Origin: Dehalococcoidia bacterium | Lineage (GTDB): Bacteria > Chloroflexota > Dehalococcoidia > GIF9 > AB-539-J10 | NCBI GenBank assembly: GCA_029857995.1 | Contig: JAOUFZ010000002.1 | Span: 1 to 33,523, forward strand | Length of the DNA stretch: 33,523 nt | Reading direction: 5' to 3' | Shown: one piece after another, positions 162-29,055 of the stretch | Position numbering within the stretch: position 1 is the first letter of the stretch | Layout of the letters: each line of letters starts with the position of its first letter | Made by a program: the position numbers and the translations under genes | The notes under the pieces: generated by a model | Seen by the model: the letters and a program-made list of their open reading frames with translations, nothing else | Database searches by the model: none | Told to the model about the DNA's origin: nothing

Positions 162-575
162 CTATGTTTCTATCGGATACCCGGCATCTACCCAGGCTTC
201 ATATTCACCTTCCAGCCGGTACACATTCATGAATTCAGCATCCACCAGCTTCTGCGCCCCCTGTCTTGACGCGCTCTCAGAATGACAGTAGACCAGATAC
301 GTGGCGTTCTTGTCCAGCATTGGCATCGCCGCATCGAGAGACCCATCGCCCAGGTAGTAGTTTACTGCTCCCGGTAGGTGTCCCGCCTCGTAAGCAGGTG
401 AAACATCGATGATAATTAACTCCGAGTTTTCGTCGATCATCTCTTTGGCCTCGGCGGGCGATATATCCGTATAATTACCCGCCGGCTCTTGCGGCGTGCA
501 ACCTACTGTTATTCCTACTGTTATTACTGAAGCTAAAAGTAGAATCCCAACCATAATACGTAGTCTCATTTTCAC
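162..575 (-). CDS. Rhodanese-domain sulfurtransferase, predicted lipoprotein
   Basis: 137-aa ORF. The N-terminal signal peptide ends in a lipobox-like VGC (MKMRLRIMVGILLLASVITVGITVGC). Single rhodanese fold with active-site loop YCHSESASR and C-terminal LEGEYEAWVDAGYPIE. SD-like GAAGGA lies upstream of ATG 575. Confidence 0.85.
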   Translation of the reverse strand: MKMRLRIMVGILLLASVITVGITVGCTPQEPAGNYTDISPAEAKEMIDENSELIIIDVSPAYEAGHLPGAVNYYLGDGSLDAAMPMLDKNATYLVYCHSESASRQGAQKLVDAEFMNVYRLEGEYEAWVDAGYPIET

Positions 576-689
576 TCATCCTTCGAGATTTCATATTGAA
601 CACTGTTAATAAACAACGCTCAACCCTGTTTTTTTGTTGGATTGGATCGACCACGGTTATATATAGTCTATCGACTGGGATATGGAATA

Positions 690-730
690 GTCATAAAATA
701 GAAGTCAGCAAAGTTACAAAACTATGACAT
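690..730 (-). promoter_or_regulatory. Copy A of a conserved 41-bp motif (GTCATAAAAT-N10-AAAGTTACAAAACTATGACAT on the + strand), 114 nt upstream of the rhodanese gene
   Basis: Same architecture and length as 1941-1981, 2260-2300 (reverse complement) and 12662-12702. It is oriented the same way relative to the downstream gene in all four cases. Confidence 0.6.
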
Positions 731-922
731 TCTGGAGTTAGTCGTAGGCCTGATTGGTACGGTGTCCCTGGGGAATTCGTCCCTGAGCAACTTATGGGCA
801 CCGCCATCCAGAATTGGTGTCTACAACAAGTAGGACCCGTCTCCAGGCCGCAAGAGACTGCTTTGTCGTCTCTTGCAGCCTGGCCAGTATCTGAGTGCAC
901 GCTGCAATCGAAGCCTGAGGTC

Positions 923-1111
923 TTATGCCTGCTTGATTATTGTCTTCATCTGTTTCATCATCTTGGGGTCATTAAGCTGTTCATCGGTGTAGCGGTGCAC
1001 CTCTTTGGCATGCTTTGCCGCCTGTGCAAGCACCTCTTCCTTGGTTTCGCCCCGGGCGACGAAAGGGCAAGTAGTCTCCCCGGCGTCCCGACAAGCCAAC
1101 GTGTAAGCCAT
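923..1111 (-). CDS. DUF1059-like small metal-binding protein
   Basis: 62-aa ORF MAYTLACRDAGETTCPFVARGETKEEVLAQAAKHAKEVH...; Cys pattern and length are typical of DUF1059. Strong SD AAGGAGGTG lies 5 nt before the ATG. Confidence 0.75.
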   Translation of the reverse strand: MAYTLACRDAGETTCPFVARGETKEEVLAQAAKHAKEVHRYTDEQLNDPKMMKQMKTIIKQA

Positions 1112-1189
1112 TTTTCACCTCCTTGCTTCTTTAGCTTTGCATCAGCGTTGTAATCAATTGAAAGTGCTTATGTTTACTTTTCTGCAAAC

Positions 1190-1206
1190 GTTCTCTTGAA
1201 GAGAAC
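1190..1206. promoter_or_regulatory. Perfect 17-bp palindrome GTTCTCTTGAAGAGAAC, possible operator upstream of the DUF1059-like gene
   Basis: 7-bp arms around a 3-nt centre, about 80-95 nt upstream of ATG 1111. No flanking T-tract on either strand, so it is not a convincing intrinsic terminator. Confidence 0.3.
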
Positions 1207-1233
1207 AATTCCAAATAACGATTGTGAAGTATA

Positions 1234-1524
1234 TTACTCTGTTCCAGCTCTTCTCTTTAGAATTTCGCGACCATCCTGGACTATCCTCGTCTCGGCATGT
1301 GCTATCTCGTAAGCTGGAGCAAGGAATTCCTCGATTTTCTGGGCAGAGTCGGTCTCGACTACAATGTAGAGGGTGTGAGCCGGCGCGTCCACCCAGACGC
1401 CAACCAATCTAACTCCAGACTGCTCAGCACTGCTGAGCAGTCTGCCGAAGGTGGCACGGGCTTTTTCCGGATTGTGGTAAGGGCATGTCCCCGGTGTGTG
1501 GACATGAGTAATGTGAAATAACAT
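1234..1524 (-). CDS. Small hypothetical protein (about 96 aa, alpha/beta type)
   Basis: ORF MLFHITHVHTPGTCPYHNPEKARATF... preceded by GGGAGGGAGGAAG SD. No family recognised with certainty. Confidence 0.65.
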   Translation of the reverse strand: MLFHITHVHTPGTCPYHNPEKARATFGRLLSSAEQSGVRLVGVWVDAPAHTLYIVVETDSAQKIEEFLAPAYEIAHAETRIVQDGREILKRRAGTE

Positions 1525-1574
1525 TTTCTCTTCCTCCCTCCCTGTTTATTAGTTCAATCTTGGCAAGCTACCTG

Positions 1575-1865
1575 TTAGAGCTGTACTGCAACTTCGTATA
1601 TCTCGACCTTAGGTGGTTGGGCAGTTGCTTCCCAGACATATTGCGCCCGGAGGCGTTTGGCAGCCTCGGCACTGGCATTAAGGTCAGCCTCAGTCTCCCG
1701 CAGGGCGATGCCCATCTGCTTGCCTGTCTTTCGGTCAACCAACAGGTATGAGTCCTTAAACCCCTTCATATTCCTGGCTTCGGGAAGGACTGTCTCCCGC
1801 ATGAAACGGACCGCTTCGTCAATTCCCGCTGGTGACCCCTCAGTCATGGTTACTCTTGCGAACAT
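1575..1865 (-). CDS. Ferredoxin-like (Dabb/ABM-type) small stress-related protein
   Basis: The ORF track starts at 1883, but AAGGAG sits 7 nt before the second ATG (1865, MFARVTMTEG...). The sequence (...MKGFKDSYLLVDRKTGKQMGIALRETEADL...) resembles monooxygenase-like Dabb domains. Confidence 0.6.
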   Translation of the reverse strand: MFARVTMTEGSPAGIDEAVRFMRETVLPEARNMKGFKDSYLLVDRKTGKQMGIALRETEADLNASAEAAKRLRAQYVWEATAQPPKVEIYEVAVQL

Positions 1866-1940
1866 TTCGCAGCTCCTTTCCATTAGTAATGTTTTACAGC
1901 TGATGCACTACAACGATTGTAGCAATAGCAGTGTTAAAAG

Positions 1941-1981
1941 GTCATAAAATTGCATCAATAAAAGTTGCAAAGTTATGTCAT
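1941..1981 (-). promoter_or_regulatory. Copy B of the 41-bp motif, about 75 nt upstream of the 1575-1865 gene
   Basis: GTCATAAAAT-TGCATCAATA-AAAGTTGCAAAGTTATGTCAT. Confidence 0.6.
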
Positions 1982-2259
1982 TTTGTTATGGGCTAGTTTA
2001 TATGAAAAGGGACACACTTCTTCAGCTATAACGCTTACAAAGGGTGTCCCCACATTCGTTCCACTACTCCTCCCCTTCGATCACTTTCGCTAAGTTGCCC
2101 ACTTTACTTGGAGCCCTCATAATATCACGAGGAGCTCAGGAACCTTCCTTCACTTGCACTTTTTACTTTAACAGTATCCCACCTCCCTTTTTCAATATAA
2201 TTCTAGACTCATGGGTAGCCTGCGTCTGTGACTCTTATCGCTTTGAGATTAGGTGCAAA

Positions 2260-2300
2260 ATGTCACACTTTTGTAATTTTTCCCATCGATATTTTATGAC
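2260..2300 (+). promoter_or_regulatory. Copy C of the 41-bp motif (inverted), 174 nt upstream of the SDR gene
   Basis: ATGTCACACTTTTGTAATTTT-TCCCATCGAT-ATTTTATGAC. This is the reverse complement of the other copies, matching the + strand orientation of the downstream gene. Confidence 0.6.
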
Positions 2301-2474
2301 TTCTCCACAGCAGGCGAACTATAATTTCAATCGGAGCGTGTCCGTGTTGCTAAGTCGCGCCCTGTAATTTCGTTCAAGTCTGGAGACTGGTTGGAGTAAG
2401 GAAATGCGGAAGCGTTGCGAGATTACCTTTCTAACGTGATTCGGCATATCATAAGACCAAGGAGGTGAAGAAAC

Positions 2475-3230
2475 ATAAGGCTAAATAACAAAACAGCGAT
2501 TGTAACTGGGGCTCGGAGAGGAATAGGGCGTGCCATTGCCTTGGCTCTGGCCAGAGAAGGAGCCAATGTAGTTGTGAGTGACATAAGCCAAGAAGATTGC
2601 CAGAAGGTTGTTGATGAGATAGAAGAGCTGGGGAGAAAAGGATTGGCACTCAAGTGTGAGGTCAGCTCCAGCGACGACGTCGAGGATATGGTCAAGAGAA
2701 CAGTGGCAGAGTTTGGCAGAGTTGACATCCTGGTAAACAATGCAGGAATCTTAACTTTCAAGCCGTTCCTGGAGCTTACGGATGAAGACTGGGACAAGAC
2801 TTTAAATGTAAATCTCAGGGGGCAGTTTCTCTGTGCTCGGGCTGCTGGCAGAGTCATGATCAAGAACAAATGGGGGCGCATCATTAACATCGCCTCAATC
2901 TCTTCCGGTGGATGTGGCATTGCCTTTCCTCTCATAGCTCATTACACGGCATCAAAAGGTGGTGTAATGGCTCTCACCGAAGCACTTGCACTGGAGCTTA
3001 CTCCCCAAGGCGTAAATGTGAACGCGATTTGCCCCGGGGCGATAGATACTGACATGTCTAAAGGAGTCAAGGAAGGCGGTCAGTTGGCGCAGGTGCTGGC
3101 AAGAATTCCTAAGGGAAGACTGGGACAACCGGAGGAAATTGCTAGCCTTGCCGTTTTTTTGGCATCCGAGGAGGCTGATTATATAAGTGGGGCTGCCATT
3201 GTTATTGATGGTGGGTGGCTAACATCATAG
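2475..3230 (+). CDS. Short-chain dehydrogenase/reductase (FabG-like)
   Basis: Rossmann motif TGARRGIG, NNAG, YTASK catalytic motif and PG..DT. The first canonical in-frame start (TTG 2541) lies after the TGxxxGIG motif. The in-frame stop is at 2466 and GGAGGTG is at 2461-2467, so ATA 2475 is the most plausible start. Confidence 0.85.
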   Translation: MRLNNKTAIVTGARRGIGRAIALALAREGANVVVSDISQEDCQKVVDEIEELGRKGLALKCEVSSSDDVEDMVKRTVAEFGRVDILVNNAGILTFKPFLELTDEDWDKTLNVNLRGQFLCARAAGRVMIKNKWGRIINIASISSGGCGIAFPLIAHYTASKGGVMALTEALALELTPQGVNVNAICPGAIDTDMSKGVKEGGQLAQVLARIPKGRLGQPEEIASLAVFLASEEADYISGAAIVIDGGWLTS

Positions 3231-3277
3231 CCTATTGATAAGTGTCGCCTCTACGGCCAAAAACATAAGCGCTGGGG

Positions 3278-3463
3278 GTGTTCTATAATGGGGGACACCA
3301 TGCCGGGCTTGGTGCGAGCACTCTGCTTCGGGTTGGTTATCCGAGTGTCTACAATGTCCCCGATAGCGTAAAGGGATGGGTAGCTGCTGGTTTTCCTGTC
3401 ACCACTGGCGAGGCTCTTGAGTACCAGGCAAATGGAGTTCGGAGGGAGTATGAAGAAATATGA
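3278..3463 (+). pseudogene. Truncated rhodanese-domain remnant (C-terminal half only, active-site Cys replaced by Asn)
   Basis: VFYNGGHHAGLGASTLLRVGYPSVYNVPDSVKGWVAAGFPV matches the rhodanese active-site loop through the C-terminus. An in-frame TAA at 3266 and the SDR stop at 3230 leave no room for the N-terminal half. It overlaps the next gene by 14 nt. Confidence 0.45.
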
Positions 3464-4823
3464 TGTCATTGTCATCGGCTCAGGGTGCGGAACTAATATT
3501 GTCGACGAAGCCCTATCCCATGGCCTAAGTGTGGCACTTGTGGATAAAGGCCCACTTGGAGGTACCTGTGCCAATCTGGGCTGTATACCATCCAAGATGC
3601 TCATATTCGCTGCTGACAGAATAGCCGAGATACAGGGAGCCAAAAAGCTGGGCATTGAAGCCGCGACAAAAAATATTGACTTCAATTTCATCATGGAGCG
3701 CATGAGAAAAGTCGTACGGGAAAGTCAAGAACACATGAAGCAAGAACTCTCCCACGTAGAAAATCTAGACTTCTATGAAGGCGAAGGACACTTTGTTGCT
3801 GATTACACCATCGAGGTTACTGGTAAAAAAATAAAGGGCGATAAGGTTTTCATCGCTTCTGGCTCGCGCCCCCTGATACCGCCAATAAAGGGTCTGGAAA
3901 GCCTGGGCTATCTTACCAATGAGACAGTGCTACAACTGAAGGAGCGGCCGGACAACCTCATAATTATCGGTGGGGGCTATATTGCAGTGGAATACGGCCA
4001 CTTTTTTGCCGCCATGGGAACCAGGGTAAATATTTTGGAAATGGCAGACCGGCTCGTCCTTGCTGAAGAACCAGAAATAGCGGAGATTCTGAAGAAGGAG
4101 TTAGGCCGGCGCATGGATGTTTACACTGGCGTCCAAGCTGAGGCGGTGAAGAGTAATGGGCATGATGTAACCGTTGTTGTAAACGATTTAAAGGGTGGCG
4201 GGCATAAGGAATTCACGGCACAGAGAATCCTGATGGCCGTGGGTAGAAGGTCTAATGCCGACCTGCTAAAGTTAGAAAATACTGGTGTGGAGGTTGATAA
4301 AAGAGGCTTTATCAAGGTTGATGAGTACCTTGAAACCACTAAGAAGAACATATTTGCTGTGGGGGATATCAACGGTCAGCAGATGTTTACGCATGTAGCC
4401 AACGTAGAAGCATCGCTGGCTGCCGATAATGCCATCCATGGCAGCAAAATAAAGATGGACTACAGCGCTGCTCCCCATGCTGTCTATTCCTACCCCCAGA
4501 TTGCATCCGTAGGAATGACTGAAGAAGCTGCCAGAAAAGCACACAAGGTCCTGATCGGCAAGGCCAAGTATTCAGACGTGGCCCAGGGTGAGGCCATGAT
4601 GGAGGAAAATGGCTTCGCCAAAGCTATCGTAGAGGCGGATACGGGAAAGATATTAGGTTTTCACATTATTGGCCCCTACGCGCCTATTCTGATTCAGGAA
4701 GTGATAAATGTCATGGCATCTGGCGGTGGCATTGACCAGATACAAACAAGCATGCATATCCATCCCGCTGTCACCGAGCTAATACCTCAGGTGTTAAGTA
4801 ACCTGAAGAACACAATGTCATGA
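3450..4823 (+). CDS. Class I pyridine nucleotide-disulfide oxidoreductase (dihydrolipoamide dehydrogenase / mycothione reductase-like)
   Basis: GGAGGGAG SD before ATG 3450. FAD motif VIGSGCG, redox-active disulfide GGTCANLGCIPSK, NAD motif IIGGGYIAVE, and C-terminal dimerisation motif HIHPAVTE. Confidence 0.9.
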   Translation: MKKYDVIVIGSGCGTNIVDEALSHGLSVALVDKGPLGGTCANLGCIPSKMLIFAADRIAEIQGAKKLGIEAATKNIDFNFIMERMRKVVRESQEHMKQELSHVENLDFYEGEGHFVADYTIEVTGKKIKGDKVFIASGSRPLIPPIKGLESLGYLTNETVLQLKERPDNLIIIGGGYIAVEYGHFFAAMGTRVNILEMADRLVLAEEPEIAEILKKELGRRMDVYTGVQAEAVKSNGHDVTVVVNDLKGGGHKEFTAQRILMAVGRRSNADLLKLENTGVEVDKRGFIKVDEYLETTKKNIFAVGDINGQQMFTHVANVEASLAADNAIHGSKIKMDYSAAPHAVYSYPQIASVGMTEEAARKAHKVLIGKAKYSDVAQGEAMMEENGFAKAIVEADTGKILGFHIIGPYAPILIQEVINVMASGGGIDQIQTSMHIHPAVTELIPQVLSNLKNTMS

Positions 4824-4966
4824 TTACCAGAACAGAAGATAATGGCGCGTGAGCACGGTAGCGAGTCAATTGTCGAGCTAGGAGACTTTTGGCTTCTCGC
4901 CGGTCGGCAAACAGTTCAGGGCTATGCGACAGGATGCGTAATTTCCCCATGACCAAGCTCCAATTT

Positions 4967-5554
4967 CTAAACACTTTTCTTACCATGAAACAATTCACTT
5001 CCGGCACCGGGGTATACTATACGCTTTGATGCGGGAGTAGATGTAGCGACCCCGGGCCATATTCCACTCTGCGGCTGCGGTCCCTCAAGTGTTATTCCTG
5101 ATGGTGCCCCATCTCTCATCTGAGGTTCTTTTCTGATGTTAACCCTCGCCACATTGTGTGAGAATTCGATAGGGATACCGTTTGGGTCATGGGCGTAAAT
5201 CGAGTGAATGAATCCGTGGTCAATAACGTCTGATACGGGAAAACCCGCGGCCTCTAGCTTGTCCTTCAGCGACCACAGGTCATCTTCCGTTTCAACACCG
5301 AAAGAGACATGGTCGAAGATGAAAGGGCCTCTAACCGGGCGTCCATGCTCCTTTTTGGCCACAGGCTTAACCCCAGCCCACTCAAAAAAGGCGATGAGGT
5401 CAGTCTCCGAAATCTCAAAAAAATAGTGTCGGTATCCCGGTTGCCCCAATCCGGCAACCAGACGCATACCCAGCAGGTCCCTCCAGAAACGTATGGTCTT
5501 GTCCATATCTCCTGTAGCCATAGCCAGGTGATTTACTCCATTAAAACTGACCAT
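4967..5554 (-). CDS. VOC family (glyoxalase/bleomycin resistance/dioxygenase fold) protein
   Basis: 195 aa; VNHLAMATGDMDKTIRFW...HYFFE...FDHVSFGV...HSIYAHDPNGIPIEF, typical paired beta-alpha-beta-beta-beta modules. Confidence 0.8.
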   Translation of the reverse strand: MVSFNGVNHLAMATGDMDKTIRFWRDLLGMRLVAGLGQPGYRHYFFEISETDLIAFFEWAGVKPVAKKEHGRPVRGPFIFDHVSFGVETEDDLWSLKDKLEAAGFPVSDVIDHGFIHSIYAHDPNGIPIEFSHNVARVNIRKEPQMRDGAPSGITLEGPQPQSGIWPGVATSTPASKRIVYPGAGSELFHGKKSV

Positions 5555-5582
5555 TTATGTATTCCTCCTTGCCATCTCGAAG

Positions 5583-6071
5583 TTATGCCCCACCCCTAAG
5601 TCTGCCTGCCATATATACCAGTTCACTGAGATGTTTCTTTTCCTCGCTGGTTATCACGTCTACGATTTCTTGATCCTGTCTGGGCATCATGCCCCTCATC
5701 TCTGAATAGAACAGAATAGAATCTTTCTCAAAAGCGATGCCAATTTCTAAGGCTTCTACGTCTGTAATCGATTTTCTCCTCAAGACAGTCTGTGCTCGTT
5801 CCCCAGCGAAGATACTGGTTTCAGCTAGGTCCCTGATATACTGGTAGTGTTCCCCAGTTTGCTTTTGGTAAGGTCGATAGCCACCAAGACGGGACAGCAT
5901 ATCATGAAAGTTATTCTCATGTTCCCTCTCCCGGGCAGCAAGTTTGGCAAAAACGTCCCCTATCTCTTTGTTTCTATTAAGTCGAGCTGCAACCTCGTAG
6001 AAGAAGCGTCCGTTCTTCTCGATCTCGATTGCCAATTCCAGAAATTCCTTACCGATTGATATTTCAGACAT
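5583..6071 (-). CDS. Ferritin-like / rubrerythrin-family diiron protein
   Basis: 162 aa; ELAIEIEKNGRFFY...AAREREHENNF...AFEKDSILFY...SEEKKHLSEL shows two E...ExxH-type half-sites. GGAGGTAGAAG SD. Confidence 0.8.
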   Translation of the reverse strand: MSEISIGKEFLELAIEIEKNGRFFYEVAARLNRNKEIGDVFAKLAAREREHENNFHDMLSRLGGYRPYQKQTGEHYQYIRDLAETSIFAGERAQTVLRRKSITDVEALEIGIAFEKDSILFYSEMRGMMPRQDQEIVDVITSEEKKHLSELVYMAGRLRGGA

Positions 6072-6096
6072 CTTCTACCTCCTTGAACTCTTTTCC

Positions 6097-6276
6097 TTAC
6101 TCATGGGAGTGGTGCTTGGCTGAAGATCCCTCACAGCACCCTGGCTCTCCCGGATGACCGCAACAGTTCTGTCTTCGCCAAATCTTTATGAAGTTGTTGC
6201 GAAACACTAGTTTGAGCTTTCTTCCCAGAGGCATGGGCACTGACATATTGGTGAAAAACGCTTTTACTGTTGGCAT
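6097..6276 (-). CDS. Small Cys-rich protein (59 aa, C-terminal CCGHPGEPGCC motif), function unknown
   Basis: AGGAG lies 8 nt before the internal ATG 6276 (MPTVKAFFTNMSV...); the longer track ORF (to 6339) lacks an SD. Sits between korB and the rubrerythrin-like gene on the same strand. Confidence 0.55.
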   Translation of the reverse strand: MPTVKAFFTNMSVPMPLGRKLKLVFRNNFIKIWRRQNCCGHPGEPGCCEGSSAKHHSHE

Positions 6277-6392
6277 ATTACAAGCTCCTAAGAATATTCC
6301 TTGTTCATCAACCCTAGGTAACGCTGCGTATTGCTTCATTTACTGACCTATTCTCATATCGGTCACCTTCCTATTGTCGAAATCACGTCGAC

Positions 6393-7244
6393 TCACATAA
6401 ACTCCGCCAGGAGTTTCTCAACTCGACGGGGGTCAATTATCTGTTTCACCAGCGGCCCCTCGCTCAGAGCCGGTAGCTGATCTTCGTAAACCAGCAAATC
6501 TCCTTTGTAGATGACCCCAATAGGAATCTTCTCTCCCCATTCAAGTGCCTTTTCTATTGCTGCCTTCTTGTCGCTGGGGTCATAGCTTTCGTCTTCCAGC
6601 TTATACACCCGTTCCGCATACCACTGGAAGGTATTTTTATGGTTGAACGAGATGCAGGGTTGCAGAATATCGATGAGGGCGAATCCCCGATGAGTAATAC
6701 CCCTTTTAATAAGGTTGGAAAGGTGGTCTATATCCCCGGCGAAGCCTCTACCGACGAAACTGGCACCGCTGACGATCGCCAGGGCGATAGGATTTACCGG
6801 GCTAGCTGCTCCGTAAGGCGTCGTCTTGGTGATAAAACCGACATCACTGGTGGGGGATGCCTGTCCCTTGGTCAGCCCATAGACCTGATTATTATGTACC
6901 AGGTAGGTAATATCATGGTTGCGACGGGCAGCATGGAGAAAATGGTTGCCTCCCTCGCCATAGGCATCCCCATCGCCGCTGATGGCGATGACTATCAACT
7001 CAGAATTGGCAATCTTGGCGCCGATAGCTGGCGGAACCGGTCTGCCATGCAGGGAGTTGAACACGTTGCCTCTGGTGTAGTGAGGTAGCTTGCCTGCCTG
7101 GCCGATACCAGAGACCAGTAAGACCTGATGAGGTTCAATCTCCATCTCAACCAGTGCTCTATTTAATGCCTGCAATATGCCGAAGTTGCCGCAACCTGGG
7201 CACCACGCCGGCTTCAGTCCAGCATAATCAGAGACTGTAACCAT
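6393..7244 (-). CDS. korB: 2-oxoacid:ferredoxin oxidoreductase, beta (TPP-binding) subunit
   Basis: 283 aa; WCPGCGNFGIL cluster/TPP motif and GDGD..GEGGNH TPP-Mg site. Starts 3 nt after the alpha subunit stop. Confidence 0.92.
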   Translation of the reverse strand: MVTVSDYAGLKPAWCPGCGNFGILQALNRALVEMEIEPHQVLLVSGIGQAGKLPHYTRGNVFNSLHGRPVPPAIGAKIANSELIVIAISGDGDAYGEGGNHFLHAARRNHDITYLVHNNQVYGLTKGQASPTSDVGFITKTTPYGAASPVNPIALAIVSGASFVGRGFAGDIDHLSNLIKRGITHRGFALIDILQPCISFNHKNTFQWYAERVYKLEDESYDPSDKKAAIEKALEWGEKIPIGVIYKGDLLVYEDQLPALSEGPLVKQIIDPRRVEKLLAEFM

Positions 7245-7246
7245 CT

Positions 7247-8962
7247 TTAGCCCCTCTCCTTTCTCACTGCTTGGGCGATAAAGGCTGGTGTAAAGGGCCG
7301 CCCATCGTATTTCAGGATTCGACCGCTAACATCATATCCCGTTTCTGCCTTCATGAGGCGGGCAAGCTGTCCCGTAGCATTGTTTTCAATGGCGTAGCTA
7401 TTTCGGGCCTTACTGACAGCATCGGCTACTGCCTTCGCCGGGAAAGGCCATAGTTCATTGAGGTGAAGCATATTGACGCTGGCGTCTTCCTTGCACAGGA
7501 TATCCACTGCCTCATGGATAGCTCCATAAGTGCTGCCCCAGCCTATAAGAGTTGTTTCCGCCTTTTTAGGACCGTACTTCTTTGGTGTGCCGATTTCCTC
7601 TTTAAGTGAAAAAAGCTTTCGCAGTCTTTTCTGCACCTGTGCCGTCCTCTCCCCAGCATCTTCCGTGAGGTGTCCTTCCTCATCGTGCTCGTCGCAGTCG
7701 GTGACCACCAGTGCCTTGCCCAGACCAGGGAAGGCTCGGGGAGAAATACCGGACTTTGTTACCCTGTGTCTCAGGTACTCCAAGGGGTCATCCTCTTTCT
7801 CTGAAAATAACATGCCGCGGTCGATGCTTACCTGCGAGAGGTCTAATGGGTCAACGGTGGCATAGGAGCTTGCCAGATGCTGATCGGTTAAAATAATAAC
7901 CGGCAGTTGATATTTTTCTGCCCAATTGAAAGCGTTGATCGTTACCCAGAAGGCATCTTCAATGGTAGCCGGTGCCAAGACAGCCCTGGGGAAGTCGCCG
8001 TGGTGGGCATGAAGCACAAACTGAAGGTCACCCTGTTCCGTTCGGGTGGGCAGGCCTACAGCTGGACCCGGTCGCTGCCCATCAATTATCACTATCGGTG
8101 TCTCAGTGATGCCCGCCAGCCCTATGCCTTCTACCATGAGGCAAAGGCCGCTGCCAGAGGTGGCAGTCATGGCCCTGACACCAGCGTAGGCAGCCCCAAT
8201 AGCCATGTTGATGGCAGCTATCTCGTCCTCAGCGTGGACCATTACCAAATCGAATTCTTTTGATTTGGCTGCCATATATTCCATGATAGAGCTGGCAGGG
8301 GTCATAGGATAGGCAGCCATGAATTTGCATCCTGCGGCAATCGCCCCCAGAGATATTGCCTCGTTGCCGGTGAGCAGCATTCTCTTAGCCTCAGAGAGGG
8401 GCTTGAGCTTACGAAGGTTGCCTTTCTGCTCAGACTGGACATAGTCGTATCCCGCCTTTGCCGCTGCAATATTCCTATCGGCAACTTCGCCCTTCCCGAA
8501 CCAGTCTACCAGAACCGTATTTAGTATGTTCAGATCATATTTTACCGCTGCCAGGACAGCACCGAGGGCCACGGTATTGATCATGAGCTTGGCTCCAGCC
8601 TTCTCCTCGGCCAGCTTCTCCAGCGGTATGCTGAAAAGGCTACCATTATTACCGCTGATTCCCTTTACCTTTTCTCCATCGAAAATGATAATGCCTTGAG
8701 TAACCATATTCGGTTGGTGCAATTCGATACTGTCCATGTTAAGTGCAATCAGTATGTCCACGTCTTCGGCAATGGCATCTACCTTGCCGTCACTGACTCT
8801 GACACGGAAGAAGTTATGTCCGCCTCTAACTCTGGACTCGTAATCCTGGTCAGCGAAGATATGGTAACCGCCGCGGGCAAAGACTTTAGCCAGCAGGAAT
8901 CCTACCGACTGCACTCCTTGTCCAGCTTCTCCGCCCACCATGAAATTAAAATCAACAGGCAT
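7247..8962 (-). CDS. korA: 2-oxoacid:ferredoxin oxidoreductase, fused gamma-alpha subunit
   Basis: 571 aa. N-terminal gamma-like domain (GGEAGQGVQSVGFLLAKVFARGGYHIF...RGG), then alpha domain (AAYPMTPAS...TATSGSGLCLM). Confidence 0.9.
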   Translation of the reverse strand: MPVDFNFMVGGEAGQGVQSVGFLLAKVFARGGYHIFADQDYESRVRGGHNFFRVRVSDGKVDAIAEDVDILIALNMDSIELHQPNMVTQGIIIFDGEKVKGISGNNGSLFSIPLEKLAEEKAGAKLMINTVALGAVLAAVKYDLNILNTVLVDWFGKGEVADRNIAAAKAGYDYVQSEQKGNLRKLKPLSEAKRMLLTGNEAISLGAIAAGCKFMAAYPMTPASSIMEYMAAKSKEFDLVMVHAEDEIAAINMAIGAAYAGVRAMTATSGSGLCLMVEGIGLAGITETPIVIIDGQRPGPAVGLPTRTEQGDLQFVLHAHHGDFPRAVLAPATIEDAFWVTINAFNWAEKYQLPVIILTDQHLASSYATVDPLDLSQVSIDRGMLFSEKEDDPLEYLRHRVTKSGISPRAFPGLGKALVVTDCDEHDEEGHLTEDAGERTAQVQKRLRKLFSLKEEIGTPKKYGPKKAETTLIGWGSTYGAIHEAVDILCKEDASVNMLHLNELWPFPAKAVADAVSKARNSYAIENNATGQLARLMKAETGYDVSGRILKYDGRPFTPAFIAQAVRKERG

Positions 8963-9300
8963 TAATCGCCTCCAGATTGACTCTTCTTATGTTTGTCGAT
9001 AACCTCATCCACCCACTTCATGGCAGCAATCATTGTGGGGAACCCTGCCGTAGTAAATGCTAGGAGCACAGCGTGGCGAAGCTCCTCGGCGGTCATGCCT
9101 TCCTCAAGCGCTCGCCGGGCATGTGACTTTACCCCACCTTCTGAACTCAAGCCAATGGCAATGCCCAGCTTTATCAGTCGCCTTGCTTTTTCATCCAACG
9201 GCCCCCAGTCATGACATTTGACGGCTAGTTCGTCATAGGCTTTAGCTATCTCAGGAAATTGGTGCTTGAATCCTTTGTAGATATCCGGCAAATAAGTCAC
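8962..9300 (-). CDS. Carboxymuconolactone decarboxylase / AhpD-like family protein
   Basis: GGAAGGAGA SD lies 6 nt before GTG 9300 (VTYLPDIYKGF...). CMD-type helices ...LDEKARRLIKLGIAIGLSSEGGVKSHARRALEEGMTAEEL. Its stop overlaps the korA ATG (TAATG). Confidence 0.8.
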   Translation of the reverse strand: MTYLPDIYKGFKHQFPEIAKAYDELAVKCHDWGPLDEKARRLIKLGIAIGLSSEGGVKSHARRALEEGMTAEELRHAVLLAFTTAGFPTMIAAMKWVDEVIDKHKKSQSGGD

Positions 9301-9463
9301 GGTACATCTCCTTCCAGTCAAGGCCTATGGCCATCCAAAGAGCATTAACGACGGAACTGACTGTATGATCACCTCCTGGGTTCTAAAATTGCCTTCATGC
9401 TCTGCTCCTCAGCAACAATGTCTCCAAGTAAGACAGACATAGTCATCTCTGATAAACGCTTCG

Positions 9464-9859
9464 CTATGACATCTTGATTTCTTTGCTTGACTGCCAAAGA
9501 CCGTGGATATTGCACAATGCACTGGCGTAGATAACCCCGGGCTTGCCCGTCTTCATCGACAAGCTGACTTCATGCTGAGTGTATATTGAGCTTTTATCCG
9601 GTCCCTCTACCGATTCCCCGTGGGCGGCAAACTCAAAGTGCCCTATCTGGTAGGTAAACTTTTCCCCGTCCGGGTGGAAGTAAACCGAAATCCATCGGAT
9701 ATGGTATTCGGTTGTATTGGGATGAGCTATCTCTTTCCCCAGAGTTACCTTCACCGGAAAGAACTCACTGGCTTTCACTTTGTCCGCGCACTCTATTACC
9801 GGGACATGCTTCTCCATCTTCCAGTCCGCGCTTTGAAAAAGTCCTCCAAATTGTTTCAT
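9464..9859 (-). CDS. sor: Superoxide reductase, 1Fe type (neelaredoxin)
   Basis: 131 aa. EKHVPVIE, KEIAHPNTTEYHIRWI and CNIHGLW iron ligands. Near-collinear with the Pyrococcus-type SOR as I remember it. Confidence 0.92.
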   Translation of the reverse strand: MKQFGGLFQSADWKMEKHVPVIECADKVKASEFFPVKVTLGKEIAHPNTTEYHIRWISVYFHPDGEKFTYQIGHFEFAAHGESVEGPDKSSIYTQHEVSLSMKTGKPGVIYASALCNIHGLWQSSKEIKMS

Positions 9860-9912
9860 TCCATTCCCTCCTCCCTAGATATCTGCACATATTTTGATCT
9901 TCTTATATTTGC

Positions 9913-10428
9913 CTATATGCCGGGTACGCACCCAGGTGCTCTGACCATTAATACGGGAACACAACTGGCTCTGAGGACTTTGTCGGCAACGCTGCCATAA
10001 GCCCAGCGACTCGGGCCGGAGCGGCCGTGACTGGACATGACAATAATGTCAGCACCATTTTGCTCTGCGTAAGAAGCAATCGCCTCAGCAGGAGGCCAAA
10101 AGAGCACCTCCGTGTGTACCTTGACTCCTTTAGATTCCAATTTCTCGGCTATCCTGCCGAGATACCTTTCGGCCTGCTTCTCTTTCTTGCCGAATGCTTC
10201 CGGTACAAGTCGTTGAAGTGGTGGCTGGATGGAGCTCCCCCAGCCACCACCTGAGCGAATAAATGGCTCGGTTGAGCCCTTGACTGCTCTATAGCCTTGA
10301 ACGCGCTCAGTGACACTGACCAATATGACCTCTGTTGTGTCGCAGCCCTTAGCCAATTCTTCTGCATGAGGAAGTGCGCACTCGGCCAATTTAGAGCCAT
10401 CCAGCGCAACCAAGATCTTTTTGTACAT
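9913..10428 (-). CDS. Universal stress protein (UspA family), paralog 1
   Basis: MYKKILVALDGS...VMSSHGRSG...GSVADKVLR...[21 protein letters not shown]. Confidence 0.9.
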   Translation of the reverse strand: MYKKILVALDGSKLAECALPHAEELAKGCDTTEVILVSVTERVQGYRAVKGSTEPFIRSGGGWGSSIQPPLQRLVPEAFGKKEKQAERYLGRIAEKLESKGVKVHTEVLFWPPAEAIASYAEQNGADIIVMSSHGRSGPSRWAYGSVADKVLRASCVPVLMVRAPGCVPGI

Positions 10429-10449
10429 CTTTGACCTCTCTTTTCACTT

Positions 10450-10965
10450 TCAAATGCCGGGCACACAGCCCGGTGCTCTAATCATTAACACCGGGATGCA
10501 ACTGGACCTCAGAACTTTGTCGGCAACACTGCCATAGGCCCACCGGCTTGGACCGGAGCGACCATGGCTCGCCATGACAATCAGGTCACATCCATACTGT
10601 TTAGCGTAGCCGACTATTGCCTCGGTAGGTTTCCAAAGAAGTACCTCTGTACTTACATTGATTCCCTTGGCTGCCAGGGTTTTAGCTATTCTGTCAAGAT
10701 ACCTCTGTGCCTGCTTCTCTTTCTTGCCGAATGCTTCCGGTACAAGTCGTTGAAGTGGTGGCTGGATGGAGCCCAGCCAGCCACCCCCCGAGCGAACGAC
10801 TGGCTCGGTTGAGCCCTCAACTGCTCTATAGCCTTGAACGCGCTCGGTAACACTGACCAAGATGACCTCTTCCGTGCCACAGCCTTTAGCCAACTCTTCC
10901 ACATGAGGAAGTGCAGACTCAGCCAACTTGGAGCCATCTAATGGAACTAGAATTTTCTTGTACAT
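10450..10965 (-). CDS. Universal stress protein (UspA family), paralog 2
   Basis: GGAGGG SD before ATG 10965 ([12 protein letters not shown]...). Roughly 80% identical by eye to paralog 1, with a 63-nt identical tract. Same APGCVPGI tail. Confidence 0.9.
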   Translation of the reverse strand: MYKKILVPLDGSKLAESALPHVEELAKGCGTEEVILVSVTERVQGYRAVEGSTEPVVRSGGGWLGSIQPPLQRLVPEAFGKKEKQAQRYLDRIAKTLAAKGINVSTEVLLWKPTEAIVGYAKQYGCDLIVMASHGRSGPSRWAYGSVADKVLRSSCIPVLMIRAPGCVPGI

Positions 10966-10985
10966 CTTGCCCTCCTTTCCTTGCT

Positions 10986-11450
10986 CTAAATACCAGGCAC
11001 ACAACCTGGCGCTCTCACCATCAAAACTGCCACACAGGCGGAACGAAGAACCTGGTCAGCCACACTACCCCAGGCCCAGCGACTTATACCGGAGCGTCCG
11101 TGTGTGGCGATGGCGATCAGATCCATTGAGTTTTTGGTAGCATAGTCAGCGATGCTTTCCCCTGGTGTGCCGGTTATTACTTCTGGCTTGACGGATACTC
11201 CTTCATATCGAGTCCGTTTGATCAGCTGGCTCAGGTAGCTCTCCGCAGCCGCTTTATTATCTACATCAATGCTATTTATAGTTTCCTGGCTGAGACAACC
11301 GTCATAGTCGCAGAACTGGTGAAAAGGCTCGTGCACGCGGAGAAAAATAACTTCTTCCACCCCACACCCTTTTGCAACAGACTCCACGTGAGGAAGTACA
11401 CACTCCGCCAGTTCCGAGCCGTCCAATGGCACCAAAATCTTCTTGTACAT
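10986..11450 (-). CDS. Universal stress protein (UspA family), paralog 3
   Basis: [16 protein letters not shown]...ATHGRSG...GSVADQVLR...[20 protein letters not shown]. Lacks the about 20-aa insertion found in paralogs 1 and 2. Confidence 0.9.
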
Positions 11451-11550
11451 TTGGACCTCCTTCTGATATTTTTACACGATTGGTCTGATACAGCTCAGGT
11501 TTGCATTTTTGTTCCTAGCATGTAATTCCCTCCTTCTGACATATCCTGAT

Positions 11551-12069
11551 TCATAGTAAAGCCTCGATTATTGCCTTATTGAATTTCGGCAGGTCAGCAG
11601 GTTTACGCGCGGTTATGATATTGCCATCCCTGACCACCGGCTCATCAACCCAGATAGCGCCGGCATTTTTCAGGTCTACCGCTACCGAAGGCCATGAAGT
11701 TACACGGCGCCCTTTGACTATATCGGCTGAGATCAGAAGCTGGGGGCCGTGGCAGATTGCGGCTATTATCTTGCCCTCAGCATGCGCCTTCCGTATCAAA
11801 TCAACCATCGGCTGGTGCAGGCGCATCTTGTCCGGAGCATAGCCGCCGGGGACAATTATGGCATCAAATTGACTGGCTTCAACCTTATCGGCCGTTGTGT
11901 CTACCGTCACCTTGGCCGAGCCTCTCTTTCCTGTGTAACTTCTCTTCGAGCCGCTGCCCACAATTAGCACACTAGCACCTGCGTCTTTCATCGCTCGCAG
12001 CGGTTCCGTGAACTCGGAGTCTTCAAAATCTTCCTCAGCCAGAATGGCAATGTGCTTTCCCGCAAGCAT
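11551..12069 (-). CDS. DJ-1/PfpI family protein (type 1 glutamine amidotransferase-like intracellular protease/deglycase)
   Basis: 172 aa; nucleophile elbow AAICHGPQLL and VPGGYAPD. AAAGGAGA SD. Confidence 0.9.
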   Translation of the reverse strand: MLAGKHIAILAEEDFEDSEFTEPLRAMKDAGASVLIVGSGSKRSYTGKRGSAKVTVDTTADKVEASQFDAIIVPGGYAPDKMRLHQPMVDLIRKAHAEGKIIAAICHGPQLLISADIVKGRRVTSWPSVAVDLKNAGAIWVDEPVVRDGNIITARKPADLPKFNKAIIEALL

Positions 12070-12111
12070 ATGTGTTATCTCCTTTCTGAATTGGTCATCC
12101 TTCTCCTAGTG

Positions 12112-12417
12112 TTAGCCTTTTCTTAACCTCCTTTTACGCGGTGTCGTATCACTTGAAGTAAGGAGGTCAAGTGAAATCTCATTATCTCGAGTGATTAACA
12201 GACGCAGGTTTTCGGTGATGCCATCAATGCATCCAAGGATCGGCATTATCGCTTCAGCCAGGCTTTGCCTGTCTGCAGCTTCAACCGCAACAATGATATT
12301 GGGGTACCCTTCCAGCTGGTCGGCAAGAATAACCCCTGCCCTGCTCTGCAGCATGTGAACCGCGTATTGGCAGCTCCGATCTACAATATCAAGCAACATG
12401 TATACTCTCACGCTCAT
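12112..12417 (-). CDS. Small protein resembling a stand-alone Lrp/AsnC ligand-binding (RAM-like) domain
   Basis: 101 aa; VRVYMLLDIV...GVILADQLEGYPNIIVAVEAAD...ITENLRLL. Its ATG overlaps the upstream ORF stop (ATGA). Confidence 0.5.
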   Translation of the reverse strand: MSVRVYMLLDIVDRSCQYAVHMLQSRAGVILADQLEGYPNIIVAVEAADRQSLAEAIMPILGCIDGITENLRLLITRDNEISLDLLTSSDTTPRKRRLRKG

Positions 12418-12602
12418 TTATTTGCACCTCTTCCTTCGCCCATGATTTCTGAAATATGCCACGCTTCAATAAGATTGGACTCGAAGCAATTCAGGGTTGC
12501 CCATCCAGAGCAGAAGAGCACCAGCCCATGACCATCGAAAATGGAACGCACTTTTGTCCCGTTTAGAGACTGAGCTTGTAGATATTGGGCTAGTACAACC
12601 AC
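12414..12602 (-). CDS. Hypothetical small protein (62 aa)
   Basis: GTG start with GGAGA 9 nt upstream, ATGA coupling to the next gene, and motif copy D 59 nt upstream. No family recognised. Confidence 0.35.
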   Translation of the reverse strand: MVVLAQYLQAQSLNGTKVRSIFDGHGLVLFCSGWATLNCFESNLIEAWHISEIMGEGRGANK

Positions 12603-12661
12603 TGTGGATTTTCTCCAAGACTACTTCGGTAGGGATATTCTATAAAGTAGGCAATGGAAAA

Positions 12662-12702
12662 GTCATAAAATGTAGGCAGAAAAAGTTACAAAACTATGAC
12701 AT
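12662..12702 (-). promoter_or_regulatory. Copy D of the 41-bp motif, 59 nt upstream of ORF 12414-12602 and 38 nt downstream of the response-regulator stop
   Basis: GTCATAAAAT-GTAGGCAGAA-AAAGTTACAAAACTATGACAT; the conserved blocks are identical to copy A. Confidence 0.6.
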
Positions 12703-12739
12703 TTGGGAGAGTATTGGAGAGGTTGGATAGAAATCAGCT

Positions 12740-13438
12740 TCAGGCAGAAGGCACGTCCATCATGTAGCCTGTCTTAGGTATCGTACGAATGAGCTTGGGA
12801 CTATCAGGTTCACTTTCTATCTTTTCTCTTAGCCGGCTAATCCATGTGCGCAGTATCTGTACATCGTCCCGATACTCAGGCCCCCAGATTCGTGTTAGAA
12901 GGTCACTATAAAGTATGAGCTTCCCGGCATTCTGGGCAAGCTCACTTAGTAGAAGCCATTCGATGCGGGTCAAGCGAGTTTCTTTCCCTCGCAAAATAAC
13001 AAGGTGCTTTTTGAAATCAATGACTAAATCACCCAGAGAAAGTTGATCACGGATTTTCCGTGTCCCATCTGGTGTTAGGCGCCGCCTCACCGCCTCAATT
13101 CGTGCCACCAATTCATCGGGGTTGAAAGGCTTGGCCAGATAGTCATCGGCACCAAGGGTAAGCCCCTTTACCTTATCTGCGTTTGTTTCCTTAGCGCTGA
13201 GGATGATAGTTGGTATTGGGGAAAAGGTGCGGAGTTCTTTCAACGTCTCAAAACCGTCCTTTTTGGGCATCAAGATATCAAGTATCACCAGGTCTGGCTC
13301 CTGCGTTTGTACCTGCTCCAAAGCCTTTACGCCATCGCTGGCGGTAAAAACCTCATAGCCTGAGGCTTTCAGCTTGGAGCTGAGGAAGTTCAGAATACGT
13401 TGCTCATCATCGACTACTAGGATACGAAACTGTCTCAT
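12740..13438 (-). CDS. OmpR/PhoB-family response regulator (receiver plus winged-helix)
   Basis: 232 aa; ILVVDDE, DLVILDILMPKKDG, ILSAK and C-terminal trans_reg_C motifs (LTRIEWLLLSEL...RTWISRLREKIE...IRTIPKTGY). Confidence 0.92.
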   Translation of the reverse strand: MRQFRILVVDDEQRILNFLSSKLKASGYEVFTASDGVKALEQVQTQEPDLVILDILMPKKDGFETLKELRTFSPIPTIILSAKETNADKVKGLTLGADDYLAKPFNPDELVARIEAVRRRLTPDGTRKIRDQLSLGDLVIDFKKHLVILRGKETRLTRIEWLLLSELAQNAGKLILYSDLLTRIWGPEYRDDVQILRTWISRLREKIESEPDSPKLIRTIPKTGYMMDVPSA

Positions 13439-13518
13439 AATATTGTGTTATACATACTCCTGCGCTCAAAATAATAATCTGCGCATGCAAGCAATGTCAA
13501 CCATCTACTTTGTTTTTG

Positions 13519-13547
13519 TTGACTGGGAGGCAAGGCGCAACTAGAAT
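13519..13547 (+). promoter_or_regulatory. Sigma70-like promoter for the histidine kinase (TTGACT-N17-TAGAAT)
   Basis: -35 at 13519-13524 and -10 at 13542-13547, 45 nt upstream of ATG 13593. Confidence 0.45.
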
Positions 13548-13592
13548 ATGAACAATTGACCTGATTAGTAGAGTGATACAAGGAGGATGCCA

Positions 13593-15854: not shown

Positions 15855-15930
<76 letters not shown>

Positions 15931-16078: not shown

Positions 16079-16125
16079 GCTGACTTTTAGTCAGCCGATT
16101 CAGGATTCGAGTCCCTGGCGGCTCA
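16079..16125 (+). repeat. Degenerate direct copy of the tRNA-Lys 3' half (anticodon arm to discriminator), att-like
   Basis: 41 of 47 positions are identical to 15881-15927. The anticodon position reads TTT. No 5' half, no D-arm and a disrupted T-stem. Confidence 0.7.
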
Positions 16126-28123: not shown

Positions 28124-28729
28124 TTAGGCTGATTCCCCTGTAATGCTCTCAGCTGTGTTTCTGGTGTTCTCTTTCACATGGATAAATAGGTAAACTAATT
28201 CCCTACTTACAAGTAAGAATAACCAGGCCAGGAAGGAGCCAATTATTCCCAACACAATCACGGAAACACCCATGCCTACACCTATCAGTTCAGCCTTCCA
28301 AACCATCAATCCACCATTCATGATTTCCAGTCCGAGGAGAATTGAAGCAAGAACCCCAATTATCAGTACTGCCCACCCCAAAACTCTCAAAACACTGGTC
28401 ACGTATGGCAAAAAACGATACTGCACCCGCTTAGGTCCTTTCCAAGTTTTCTGCAAAGCACGGTCTATCCTCCGAAAGGGCGGCAGCAGCCGCAATTTGC
28501 GAATACGTTTGTGTAACGAGGAACCAACCTTGCGGAACAGGGAACCAACCTTGCGGAACAGGGAACCAACCTTGCGGAACAAGGGGCCAACCTTGTGGAA
28601 CAAGGGACCGATCTTGCGAAACAAGGGACCAACCTTGCGGAAGAAGGAACCAATTTTGCGAAACAAGGGACCAACCTTGCGGAACAAAGTAACTACCTTG
28701 TGAAATACAGAGGAAATTACCACCTTCAT
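28124..28729 (-). CDS. Membrane protein: N-terminal basic heptad-repeat array ([LF]F[RH]K[VI]G[PS], 8-10 units) plus a 2-TM module ending in ENTRNTAE
   Basis: 201-aa ORF. The C-terminal half is paralogous to ORF 28759-29037 (LRVLGW...two TM...SRELVYLFIHVKENTRNTAE). No clear SD. Confidence 0.7.
   Translation of the reverse strand: MKVVISSVFHKVVTLFRKVGPLFRKIGSFFRKVGPLFRKIGPLFHKVGPLFRKVGSLFRKVGSLFRKVGSSLHKRIRKLRLLPPFRRIDRALQKTWKGPKRVQYRFLPYVTSVLRVLGWAVLIIGVLASILLGLEIMNGGLMVWKAELIGVGMGVSVIVLGIIGSFLAWLFLLVSRELVYLFIHVKENTRNTAESITGESA
28520..28708 (-). repeat. Nine tandem 21-bp units (consensus GGRACCAACCTTGCGGAACAR on the + strand) encoding the heptad array
   Basis: Units at 28520, 28541, 28562, 28583, 28604, 28625, 28646, 28667 and 28688 (degenerate). 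The first two are identical and the third differs only at its last base. Confidence 0.9.
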
Positions 28730-28758
28730 TTCACATAACCGCTAAGCTATTCATAAAT

Positions 28759-29037: not shown

Positions 29038-29055
29038 TTTGCCTCCTTTCTGTCC

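Follow-up and report, generated by a model that had tools for sequence, protein, structure and literature searches.

Candidate regulator-activated promoters of an oxidative/redox stress regulon conserved across Dehalococcoidia

What does a 41-bp motif do that stands four times in front of stress and redox genes in a Dehalococcoidia genome, and which protein would read it? The motif lies in a 33,523-nt stretch of contig JAOUFZ010000002.1 (Dehalococcoidia bacterium, assembly GCA_029857995.1), which we refer to as the window. An original prediction, made from the letters of the window, had proposed a shared promoter plus operator, served by an alternative sigma factor or an activator, that co-regulates redox and stress genes. 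Our analysis indicates that the motif is the upstream half of a longer composite promoter module of ∼67 bp, and we consider it probable from the sequence evidence that these modules are sigma-70 promoters of an oxidative/redox stress regulon, activated by a response regulator and conserved across Dehalococcoidia. The candidate regulator is an OmpR/PhoB-family protein whose gene neighbors one of the four copies.

Four motif copies and a longer promoter module

The pattern ATGWCAYANYTTTGYAAYTTT-N10-ATTTTATGAC had exactly four matches in the 33.5-kb window (denoted S1–S4) (Table 1), which bore out the four sites of the original prediction, and it had none in 100 dinucleotide-preserving shuffles of the window with three mismatches permitted. 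A core-only pattern returned the identical four sites, and repeat finding recovered the copies as families D8, D9, I1, and I2. Scored with a weight matrix built from 127 sites of other genomes, the four copies reached +54 to +94 bits, compared with −22 for the next-best window position and a shuffle maximum of −23; this gap indicates that the window has four copies, without weaker ones. All four point toward their downstream gene, as had been claimed, and the motif-to-gene distances of 57–174 nt given at that time are about right.

We scanned a collection holding one genome per bacterial or archaeal species with the pattern TTTGYAAYTTT-N10-ATTTTATGAC, which represents only the second and third of three boxes in the motif (boxes B and C; 21 positions fixed). 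Given how much information the pattern carries and how large the collection is, we estimate that about one match would arise by chance. The scan returned 105 stretches, nearly all from metagenome-assembled genomes (MAGs) of Dehalococcoidales, Dehalococcoidia, or Chloroflexota; the few matches in other phyla were without the first box (box A) and look like chance. Reading the genomes as 8-kb tiles around exact matches, we found the module in 59 species-level Dehalococcoidia assemblies, with 127 sites. In the fetched loci (numbered with the prefix L), 25 extra sites appeared when box B was left unconstrained, and most of them keep TGTAAY there. We also noted seven motif contigs (L039, L079, L081, L097, L106, L045, and L021), most with an orthologue of the window's response regulator, in MAGs assigned by label to Deltaproteobacteria, Nitrospirota, or Brocadiaceae; for these, wrong binning or labelling seems more likely than a true occurrence outside Chloroflexota.

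We number the motif from the A of ATGTCATA (positions 1–8). Box A reads aATGTCATA, with the hexamer TGTCAT at 2–7; box B is TTTGTAACTTTT, with TGTAAC at 13–18; and box C is ATTTTATGACTT, with TATGAC at 36–41. A profile of 101 unique sites showed conservation extending ∼26 nt past TATGAC, through TTtT and A48 to TAnAAT at 61–66. Position 48 was A in 100 sites, and within the last hexamer T61, A62, and T66 were found in 90, 98, and 95 of the 101, respectively. Several positions were conserved although the search had not fixed them, namely, A0, ATGTCATA, T22, T42, and T43. Spacer positions 23–31 vary freely and the boxes do not; the first base of the 10-nt spacer of the original prediction is conserved as well, with T22 in 97 of 101 sites. 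Box A had been given as ATGTCAYA in every copy, but S2 reads ATGACATA instead; across the profile, position 4 is T in 88 sites and A in 11.

The downstream conservation has the form of a core promoter. A sigma-70 −10 hexamer, TAnnnT, occurred precisely at 61–66 in 114 of 131 sites, compared with 0–15 sites for shifted registers, and it begins at a fixed distance, 19 nt downstream of TATGAC. A weak −35-like hexamer, ATGACT (37–42), overlaps box C, precedes the −10 by 18 nt, and was present in 117 of 131 sites. Because the −10 is fixed 19 nt beyond TATGAC, the latter overlaps the −35 position and is not itself the −10. The motif would therefore span approximately −72 to −32 of a putative sigma-70 promoter with a weak −35 and a long spacer, and transcription is predicted to start near position 73. 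This is ∼31 nt downstream of TATGAC, so that a start just downstream of TATGAC, as originally anticipated, is not expected. A generic sigma-70 promoter scan of the window independently picked ATGACT-18-TATAAT at 2296–2325 (S3), ATGACT-18-TAGAAT at 12666–12637 (S4), and ATGACC-18-TACAAT at 1945–1916 (S2).

Boxes A and B together form a direct repeat of hexamers, TGTCAT-N5-TGTAAC, spaced 11 bp apart with a T-rich tract after each; the spacing is the same in all four window copies and about 130 sites elsewhere. On the sequence comparisons made here, this direct repeat is the informative symmetry of the motif. Box C and its T-tract (TTATGACTTTT) are identical to box B and its T-tract (TTGTAACTTTT) at nine of 11 positions, 23 bp downstream, and natural variants of box C read TATAAC, which is nearer still to box B. 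The conserved A48 (window positions 683, 1934, 2307, and 12655) lies between the −35-like hexamer and the −10, at approximately −25, and the bases that flank it are only loosely conserved (TTtTycAT).

Gene content and linkage to a response regulator

Copies distributed without bias relative to genes would have pointed to a dispersed repeat. In the other genomes, the longest open frame downstream of the motif shared its strand in 84 of 100 cases, versus 55 of 97 for the longest frame upstream, and the first conserved open reading frame (ORF) began at a median distance of 94 nt past the motif (range 26–240 nt). Across species, we grouped the ORFs that follow the motif into conserved-ORF clusters and annotated representatives. 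Oxygen and oxidant defence was represented by desulfoferrodoxin, rubrerythrin, Fe/Mn superoxide dismutase (SOD), flavin reductase with flavodiiron protein, and disulfide oxidoreductase, and iron–sulfur assembly by ferredoxin, cysteine desulfurase, and NifU. General stress proteins comprised DJ-1/PfpI (17 instances), universal stress proteins (USPs), and Hsp20 with a P-type ATPase. There were also enzymes (rhodanese, short-chain dehydrogenase [SDR], 2-oxoacid:ferredoxin oxidoreductase, methylenetetrahydrofolate reductase, and nucleotidyl transferase), uncharacterized families (DUF1059, DUF3303, DUF488, and several small proteins), and, in a few genomes, regulators of CRP/FNR or LuxR type. Dehalococcoidia are strict anaerobes, and we take the set to be a typical oxidative/redox stress repertoire of such an organism. 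Judged by these annotations, the content of the putative regulon is coherent across species. The proposal of a shared promoter and regulator-site module that co-regulates redox and stress genes, as opposed to a dispersed repeat, is supported.

Pfam scans of the window found a single DNA-binding regulator, the OmpR/PhoB-type response regulator (Response_reg, 6.7e-32; Trans_reg_C, 1.8e-17), and no sigma-factor gene. Its closest solved structures are those of M. tuberculosis PhoP, E. coli KdpE, MtrA, RegX3, and RpaA, which match the regulator over its full length (E 1e-42 to 1e-44), a similarity at the level of the family and not of orthologues. These OmpR-family proteins bind tandem direct repeats. 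Automated labels for the protein are "KdpE" and "OmpR family"; the former finds no support, as there were no kdp genes in the fetched loci or among the annotated downstream families.

A tblastn search with the window regulator placed orthologues of 63%–89% identity in ∼30 motif-bearing loci, and of the 59 species-level assemblies, 28 have an orthologue and a motif in one 8-kb tile. In most regulator-bearing loci, a motif copy begins 11–74 nt past the stop codon of the regulator on the same strand (38 nt for S4 in the window), and the genes that follow this copy differ by lineage (a small ORF with a 101-amino-acid [aa] protein, nucleotidyl transferase, DJ-1, a 77–80-aa protein, and others). We also approached the association from the side of the regulator: three homologues of 81%–83% identity were taken from a protein search and their contigs fetched without reference to the motif, and all four loci of this test had a perfect motif 29–35 nt past the regulator stop codon. 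As a negative control, we took the 80 loci (432 kb) listed by a metagenome scan with an alignment of regulator orthologues, 76 of which hold OmpR-family paralogues of 35%–48% identity; none of the 80 had the motif with five mismatches permitted. The closest among the control loci listed were L111 (81%), whose regulator is cut by the contig end, and L112 (63%), whose regulator is N-terminally truncated and sits beside a large reverse-strand ORF with the kinase convergent; neither is informative on adjacency. Among the orthologues, the recognition-helix segment WGPEYRDDVQILRTWISRLR is almost invariant, which parallels the near-invariance of the DNA motif. In at least 28 species, then, the regulator is genomically locked to the motif, and the original prediction's pointer to the adjacent OmpR-type regulator was well aimed.

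A partner histidine kinase is encoded divergently from the regulator (Table 1), and each of the two genes has a promoter of its own: TTGACA-18-TATTAT at 13471–13500 for the regulator, near consensus, and TTGACT-17-TAGAAT at 13519–13547 for the kinase. The two-component genes thus have a near-consensus TTGAC −35, whereas the motif promoters have only ATGACT and an 18-nt spacer, as expected of activator-dependent promoters. The N-terminal sensor of the kinase differs by lineage: The window lineage shares MEDS-PAS with L011, L055, and L191–L193; L022, L077, and L079 have MASE3-PAS; L082 has GAF-PAS; and L040 has three PAS domains. Only the PAS domain adjoining the kinase core is common to the lineages. 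The sensor has therefore been swapped (MEDS, membrane MASE3, GAF, or extra PAS) while the recognition helix of the regulator and the motif stayed essentially invariant, and MEDS was rejected as a universal sensor because the kinases that partner more distant regulator orthologues have the other modules in its place.

Some loci with this arrangement have peculiarities of their own. In L194, the MEDS-PAS kinase is split into five short ORFs (7633–9879), probably as a pseudogene. The motif next to the regulator in that locus (within 10734–10993) is without TAnnnT, and 220 nt downstream of it there is a second, degenerate copy that has a good −10. Beyond the kinase gene in the window is a tRNA-Lys (CTT; 15855–15930) with a 47-nt copy of its 3′ half 150 nt on (16079–16125; 87% identical), which looks like the scar of an integrative element. 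At the equivalent spot of the related locus L193, between an M50 peptidase and the histidine kinase, there are integrase, replication protein, and helix–turn–helix genes (2089–7191).

A candidate two-component activator and the alternatives

We propose that the PAS histidine kinase phosphorylates the adjacent response regulator upon oxygen, oxidant, or redox stress. The phosphorylated regulator would bind head-to-tail at boxes A and B, centered near −63, and probably also at box C at −35, and would recruit sigma-70 RNA polymerase to a promoter with a poor −35 and an 18-nt spacer. The outcome would be a coordinated induction of oxygen, oxidant, and redox defence genes. Features of promoters that depend on OmpR/PhoB-type proteins are found here at the level of sequence: a regulator with receiver and Trans_reg_C domains, tandem direct repeats one helical turn apart, genomic association of regulator and site, and a site at and upstream of a weak sigma-70 −35.

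Several points weigh against this proposal. The invariant A48 is not explained by a regulator and sigma-70 model, and the step from box B to box C is 23 bp and not 22, with the half-site expected between them (24–29) degenerate. The window regulator gene has no motif upstream of itself and therefore no classic autoregulatory site. The adjacency of regulator and motif could in part be conserved synteny, and the regulator-first test spans close relatives only (at least 81% identity). The site set is biased, as an exact match at 21 positions was demanded, so that variability is underestimated. Finally, the oxidative-stress signal is deduced from the target genes only, and because the kinase sensor differs among lineages, the signal cannot be read from domain content.

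Could the element instead be a dispersed repeat, in the manner of a miniature inverted-repeat transposable element (MITE), or a structured RNA element, and no promoter? The outer blocks do make a 6-bp inverted repeat, GTCATA...TATGAC, which the original prediction had rightly seen, and in two of the four copies folding is somewhat more favorable than in their own shuffles (z −2.9 and −3.3). But in 20 of the 101 sites box A reads GTCACA and TATGAC is not altered to match, so that the putative stem is broken. The hairpins predicted for the copies are also weak, at −3.4 to −8.4 kcal/mol, and vary from one copy to the next; the inverted repeat is thus real without being the informative symmetry. 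Rfam has no match for the element, its only match in the window being the tRNA-Lys, and the predicted transcript would begin only downstream of the element. Nor does it look like a MITE, having a variable spacer (positions 23–31) amid invariant boxes, an orientation tied to genes, and a −10 hexamer at a fixed distance. We regard a dispersed repeat or RNA element as effectively excluded. A promoter for a sigma factor of the extracytoplasmic function (ECF) type, as the original prediction had in mind, would take TGTAAC in box B as the −35, TGAC in box C as the −10, A48 as the start, and box A as an extra operator. It would account for the invariant purine 7 nt past TGAC that the activator model does not explain, and box B resembles the TGTAAC/TGCAAC-like hexamers of B. 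subtilis SigX, SigM, and SigW promoters, sharing the "AAC" that is typical of ECF −35 elements (SigX/SigW/SigM-type promoters). However, the TGTAAC–TGAC spacing is 19 nt and not 16–17, the sequence at 35–39 is TTATG and not a −10 of the CGT type, and the conserved sigma-70 −10 at 61–66 further downstream would be left without a role. Neither the window nor the conserved gene clusters downstream of the motif contain a sigma or anti-sigma gene, and the tight linkage to an OmpR-type regulator would go unexplained. The ECF-type reading is accordingly very improbable.

Harder to set aside is a sigma-70 promoter read by some other protein, be it of CRP/FNR type, of LuxR type, or an unlinked factor, with the OmpR-type regulator a mere neighbor or member of the regulon. 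A CRP/FNR-type gene is first after the motif in several species (L018, L007, and L078), and the genes downstream of the motif in several genomes include a regulator of CRP/FNR type and a response regulator of LuxR type, either of which could bind alternatively or additionally. The sequence AAATGTCA resembles a CRP half-site, and the lack of a motif upstream of the OmpR-type regulator gene in the window counts in the same direction. But boxes A and B (TGTCA-N6-TGTAA) are direct and not inverted repeats, so we rejected their reading as a palindrome, the form of site required by CRP/FNR dimers. Only six to seven motif loci have a CRP-like gene, compared with ∼30 for the OmpR-type regulator, and the window has four motifs and no CRP/FNR or LuxR gene. 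On balance, we think another reader unlikely. Repression by the same regulator at the same site, with binding over the −35 blocking RNA polymerase until stress relieves it, is distinctly unlikely in our assessment. Since box C overlaps the −35, such a site could equally repress, a point that also weighs against the proposed activation, and OmpR-family regulators such as VicR/WalR repress or activate depending on the site (PMC4168254). The architecture nevertheless disfavors repression: The core promoter seems intrinsically weak (ATGACT with an 18-nt spacer), with its weak −35 inside the conserved recognition sequence, and the strongest half-sites lie upstream (approximately −72 to −55), which is typical of activators, whereas repressor sites are usually over the −10 or the start site.

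The proposed activator promoter resembles two well-described systems. WalR/VicR (YycF) of Firmicutes recognizes the consensus TGTWAH-N5-TGTWAH (PMC4168254), and the geometry of the direct repeat, hexamer-N5-hexamer, is identical here. TGTAAC of box B satisfies the WalR half-site perfectly, and TGTCAT of box A departs from it at one position. In contrast, WalR controls cell-wall metabolism, is essential in Firmicutes, and uses two half-sites at variable positions on either strand, whereas the module described here is tripartite and at a fixed distance from the −10. The Pho box of PhoB has the consensus CTGTCAT-AWAW-CTGTMAY (PMC3465305), and boxes A and B (ATGTCAT-AGTT-TTGTAAC) match it at six of seven positions in each half-site, box A being a near-perfect half-site. 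Further likenesses to E. coli PhoB–PhoR are the OmpR/PhoB winged-helix regulator, 7-bp direct repeats containing TGTCA with an 11-bp period and A/T-rich spacers, a site adjoining or standing in for a poor −35, and the sharing of the site by many promoters of one genome. The targets, however, belong to oxidant and redox defence, with no pst/pho or other phosphate gene among the conserved families downstream of the motif, and the kinase is of MEDS/PAS, MASE3, GAF, or PAS type and not a PhoR-type membrane kinase. Pho promoters have one 18-bp box that ends 10 bp before the −10; in these uncultured Dehalococcoidia, the strongest repeats are centered near −63 with a third box at −35. By analogy, the module would operate in the manner of a Pho-box or WalR-type promoter, and it belongs to neither regulon because its targets and kinase differ. 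Possibly, A48 and box C reflect a second contact, made by another regulator protomer or by RNA polymerase, for which Pho and WalR sites offer no equivalent.

In gene content, the putative regulon resembles other systems. The PerR, OxyR, and Rex regulons of anaerobes such as Clostridium and Desulfovibrio include rubrerythrin, desulfoferrodoxin, flavodiiron protein, SOD, and thiol/disulfide enzymes, a similar set. Those regulators are one-component proteins that act on palindromic boxes, unlike the candidate two-component activator and its direct repeats.

Putative target genes in the window and meaning for Dehalococcoidia

Pfam scans showed the left 13 kb of the window to be a block of stress and redox genes in four units, each headed by one motif copy (Table 1). 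The four promoters would control essentially everything in 162–12602, beside the two-component genes.

Table 1. Predicted promoter modules, their putative target genes, and the two-component genes in the window. The register of S1 is taken from the 101-site profile.
Feature	Coordinates	Strand	Details
Promoter module S1	665..731	−	motif 690–730; −35-like ATGACT 689–694; −10 TAGACT 665–670; predicted start ∼658
Promoter module S2	1916..1982	−	motif 1941–1981; variant box A; box B TGCAAC
S2 core promoter		−	−35-like ATGACC 1940–1945; −10 TACAAT 1916–1921; predicted start ∼1909
Promoter module S3	2259..2325	+	motif 2260–2300; −35-like ATGACT 2296–2301; −10 TATAAT 2320–2325; predicted start ∼2332
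Promoter module S4	12637..12703	−	motif 12662–12702; −35-like ATGACT 12661–12666; −10 TAGAAT 12637–12642; predicted start ∼12630
S1 target: rhodanese-domain protein	162..575	−	lipoprotein-type signal peptide; likely ATG at 569
S2 target unit	923..1883	−	96/102-aa protein, DUF3303, DUF1059
96/102-aa protein	1575–1883	−	S2 unit; no Pfam match; likely start 1865 behind AAGGAG
DUF3303 gene	1234–1524	−	S2 unit
DUF1059 gene	923–1111	−	S2 unit
S3 target unit	2475..4823	+	SDR, rhodanese-like ORF, disulfide oxidoreductase
SDR	2475–3230	+	S3 unit; ATA at start position
Small rhodanese-like ORF	3278–3463	+	S3 unit
Pyridine-nucleotide disulfide oxidoreductase	3417–4823	+	S3 unit
S4 target unit	4967..12602	−	unbroken minus-strand gene run (Pfam scans)
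OmpR/PhoB-family response regulator	12740..13438	−	candidate motif binder; receiver domain and winged-helix Trans_reg_C
Partner histidine kinase	13587..15650	+	MEDS-PAS-PAS-HisKA-HATPase; no N-terminal membrane domain; divergent from regulator

S2 and S3 stand back-to-back, 278 nt apart, and a divergent pair at similar spacing is found in L018, L028, and L051 as well. The spacer between them in the window (1982–2259) contains an inverted repeat, GGGACAC...GTGTCCC, at ∼2008–2051. The gene order of the S2 unit also follows the motif in L053 and L076. At the head of the S3 unit, the SDR gene has ATA in the place of a start codon (window 2459–2480), 5 nt past a strong ribosome-binding site (AAGGAGGTG); the close relative L018 has ATG there with the same ribosome-binding site. 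The next standard in-frame start, TTG at 2541, would remove the Rossmann motif TGxxxGIG. The ATA could be a rare start codon, a down-mutation, or a sequencing error.

The S4 run opens with a 45/62-aa Cys-containing ORF, a 101-aa protein, DJ-1/PfpI, three USPs, desulfoferrodoxin, and a CMD/AhpD-like protein and continues with the alpha and beta subunits of 2-oxoacid:ferredoxin oxidoreductase, an 80-aa ORF, rubrerythrin, and glyoxalase. Terminator-like sites were not in excess within the run, and we infer that transcription from S4 would extend through the whole of it. The same order follows the regulator-adjacent motif in L191–L193. The stop codon of the 45/62-aa ORF (12414–12602) overlaps the ATG of the 101-aa protein (12112–12417) in the sequence ATGA. 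Neither has a Pfam match, and several species keep the pair (clusters 9 and 3) directly behind the motif copy next to the regulator; the two may be the most tightly linked targets. The three USP genes are tandem paralogues (9913–11450) with a period of 537 nt and 71%–79% DNA identity over the repeated stretches. Duplications were also noted far from the stress block, where eight tandem 21-nt repeats (28488–28726) encode a 7-residue repeat within a 201-aa ORF; beside it lie paralogous zinc-ribbon membrane proteins (29056–29610 and 29853–30359) and more duplicated segments (region 28124–30359).

Dehalococcoidia are abundant in sediments, aquifers, and the subsurface, and the class includes organohalide-respiring bacteria used in bioremediation. 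Most of its lineages are uncultured, and to our knowledge, almost nothing is known of their transcription regulation. A search of full-text literature found no description of the motif, the regulator, or a Dehalococcoidia stress regulon, although its coverage was incomplete and this is not proof that the system is unpublished; a heliorhodopsin paper that came up is unrelated. A two-component activator on direct repeats is a conventional mechanism. What the sequences suggest here is an uncharacterized two-component regulon with a newly defined promoter module that is unusually rigid and class-wide in largely uncultured bacteria.

The module provides a sequence handle with which an oxidant and redox stress regulon may be predicted straight from MAGs. 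Its candidate master regulator could be tested in vitro without cultivating the organism, and the predicted transcription starts could be confirmed with existing metatranscriptomes. It would also give physiological context to DUF1059, DUF3303, the 101-aa and 77–80-aa proteins, and the 45/62-aa Cys-containing peptide. More tentatively, and with somewhat less than even confidence, we suggest that Dehalococcoidia may run their oxygen and oxidant defence through one class-wide two-component master regulator and not through a one-component sensor of the PerR, OxyR, or Rex type, using a rigid tripartite module of ∼67 bp in which regulator and site are frozen while the sensor of the kinase is swapped. 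In that case, one and the same stress regulon would respond to different signals in different lineages.

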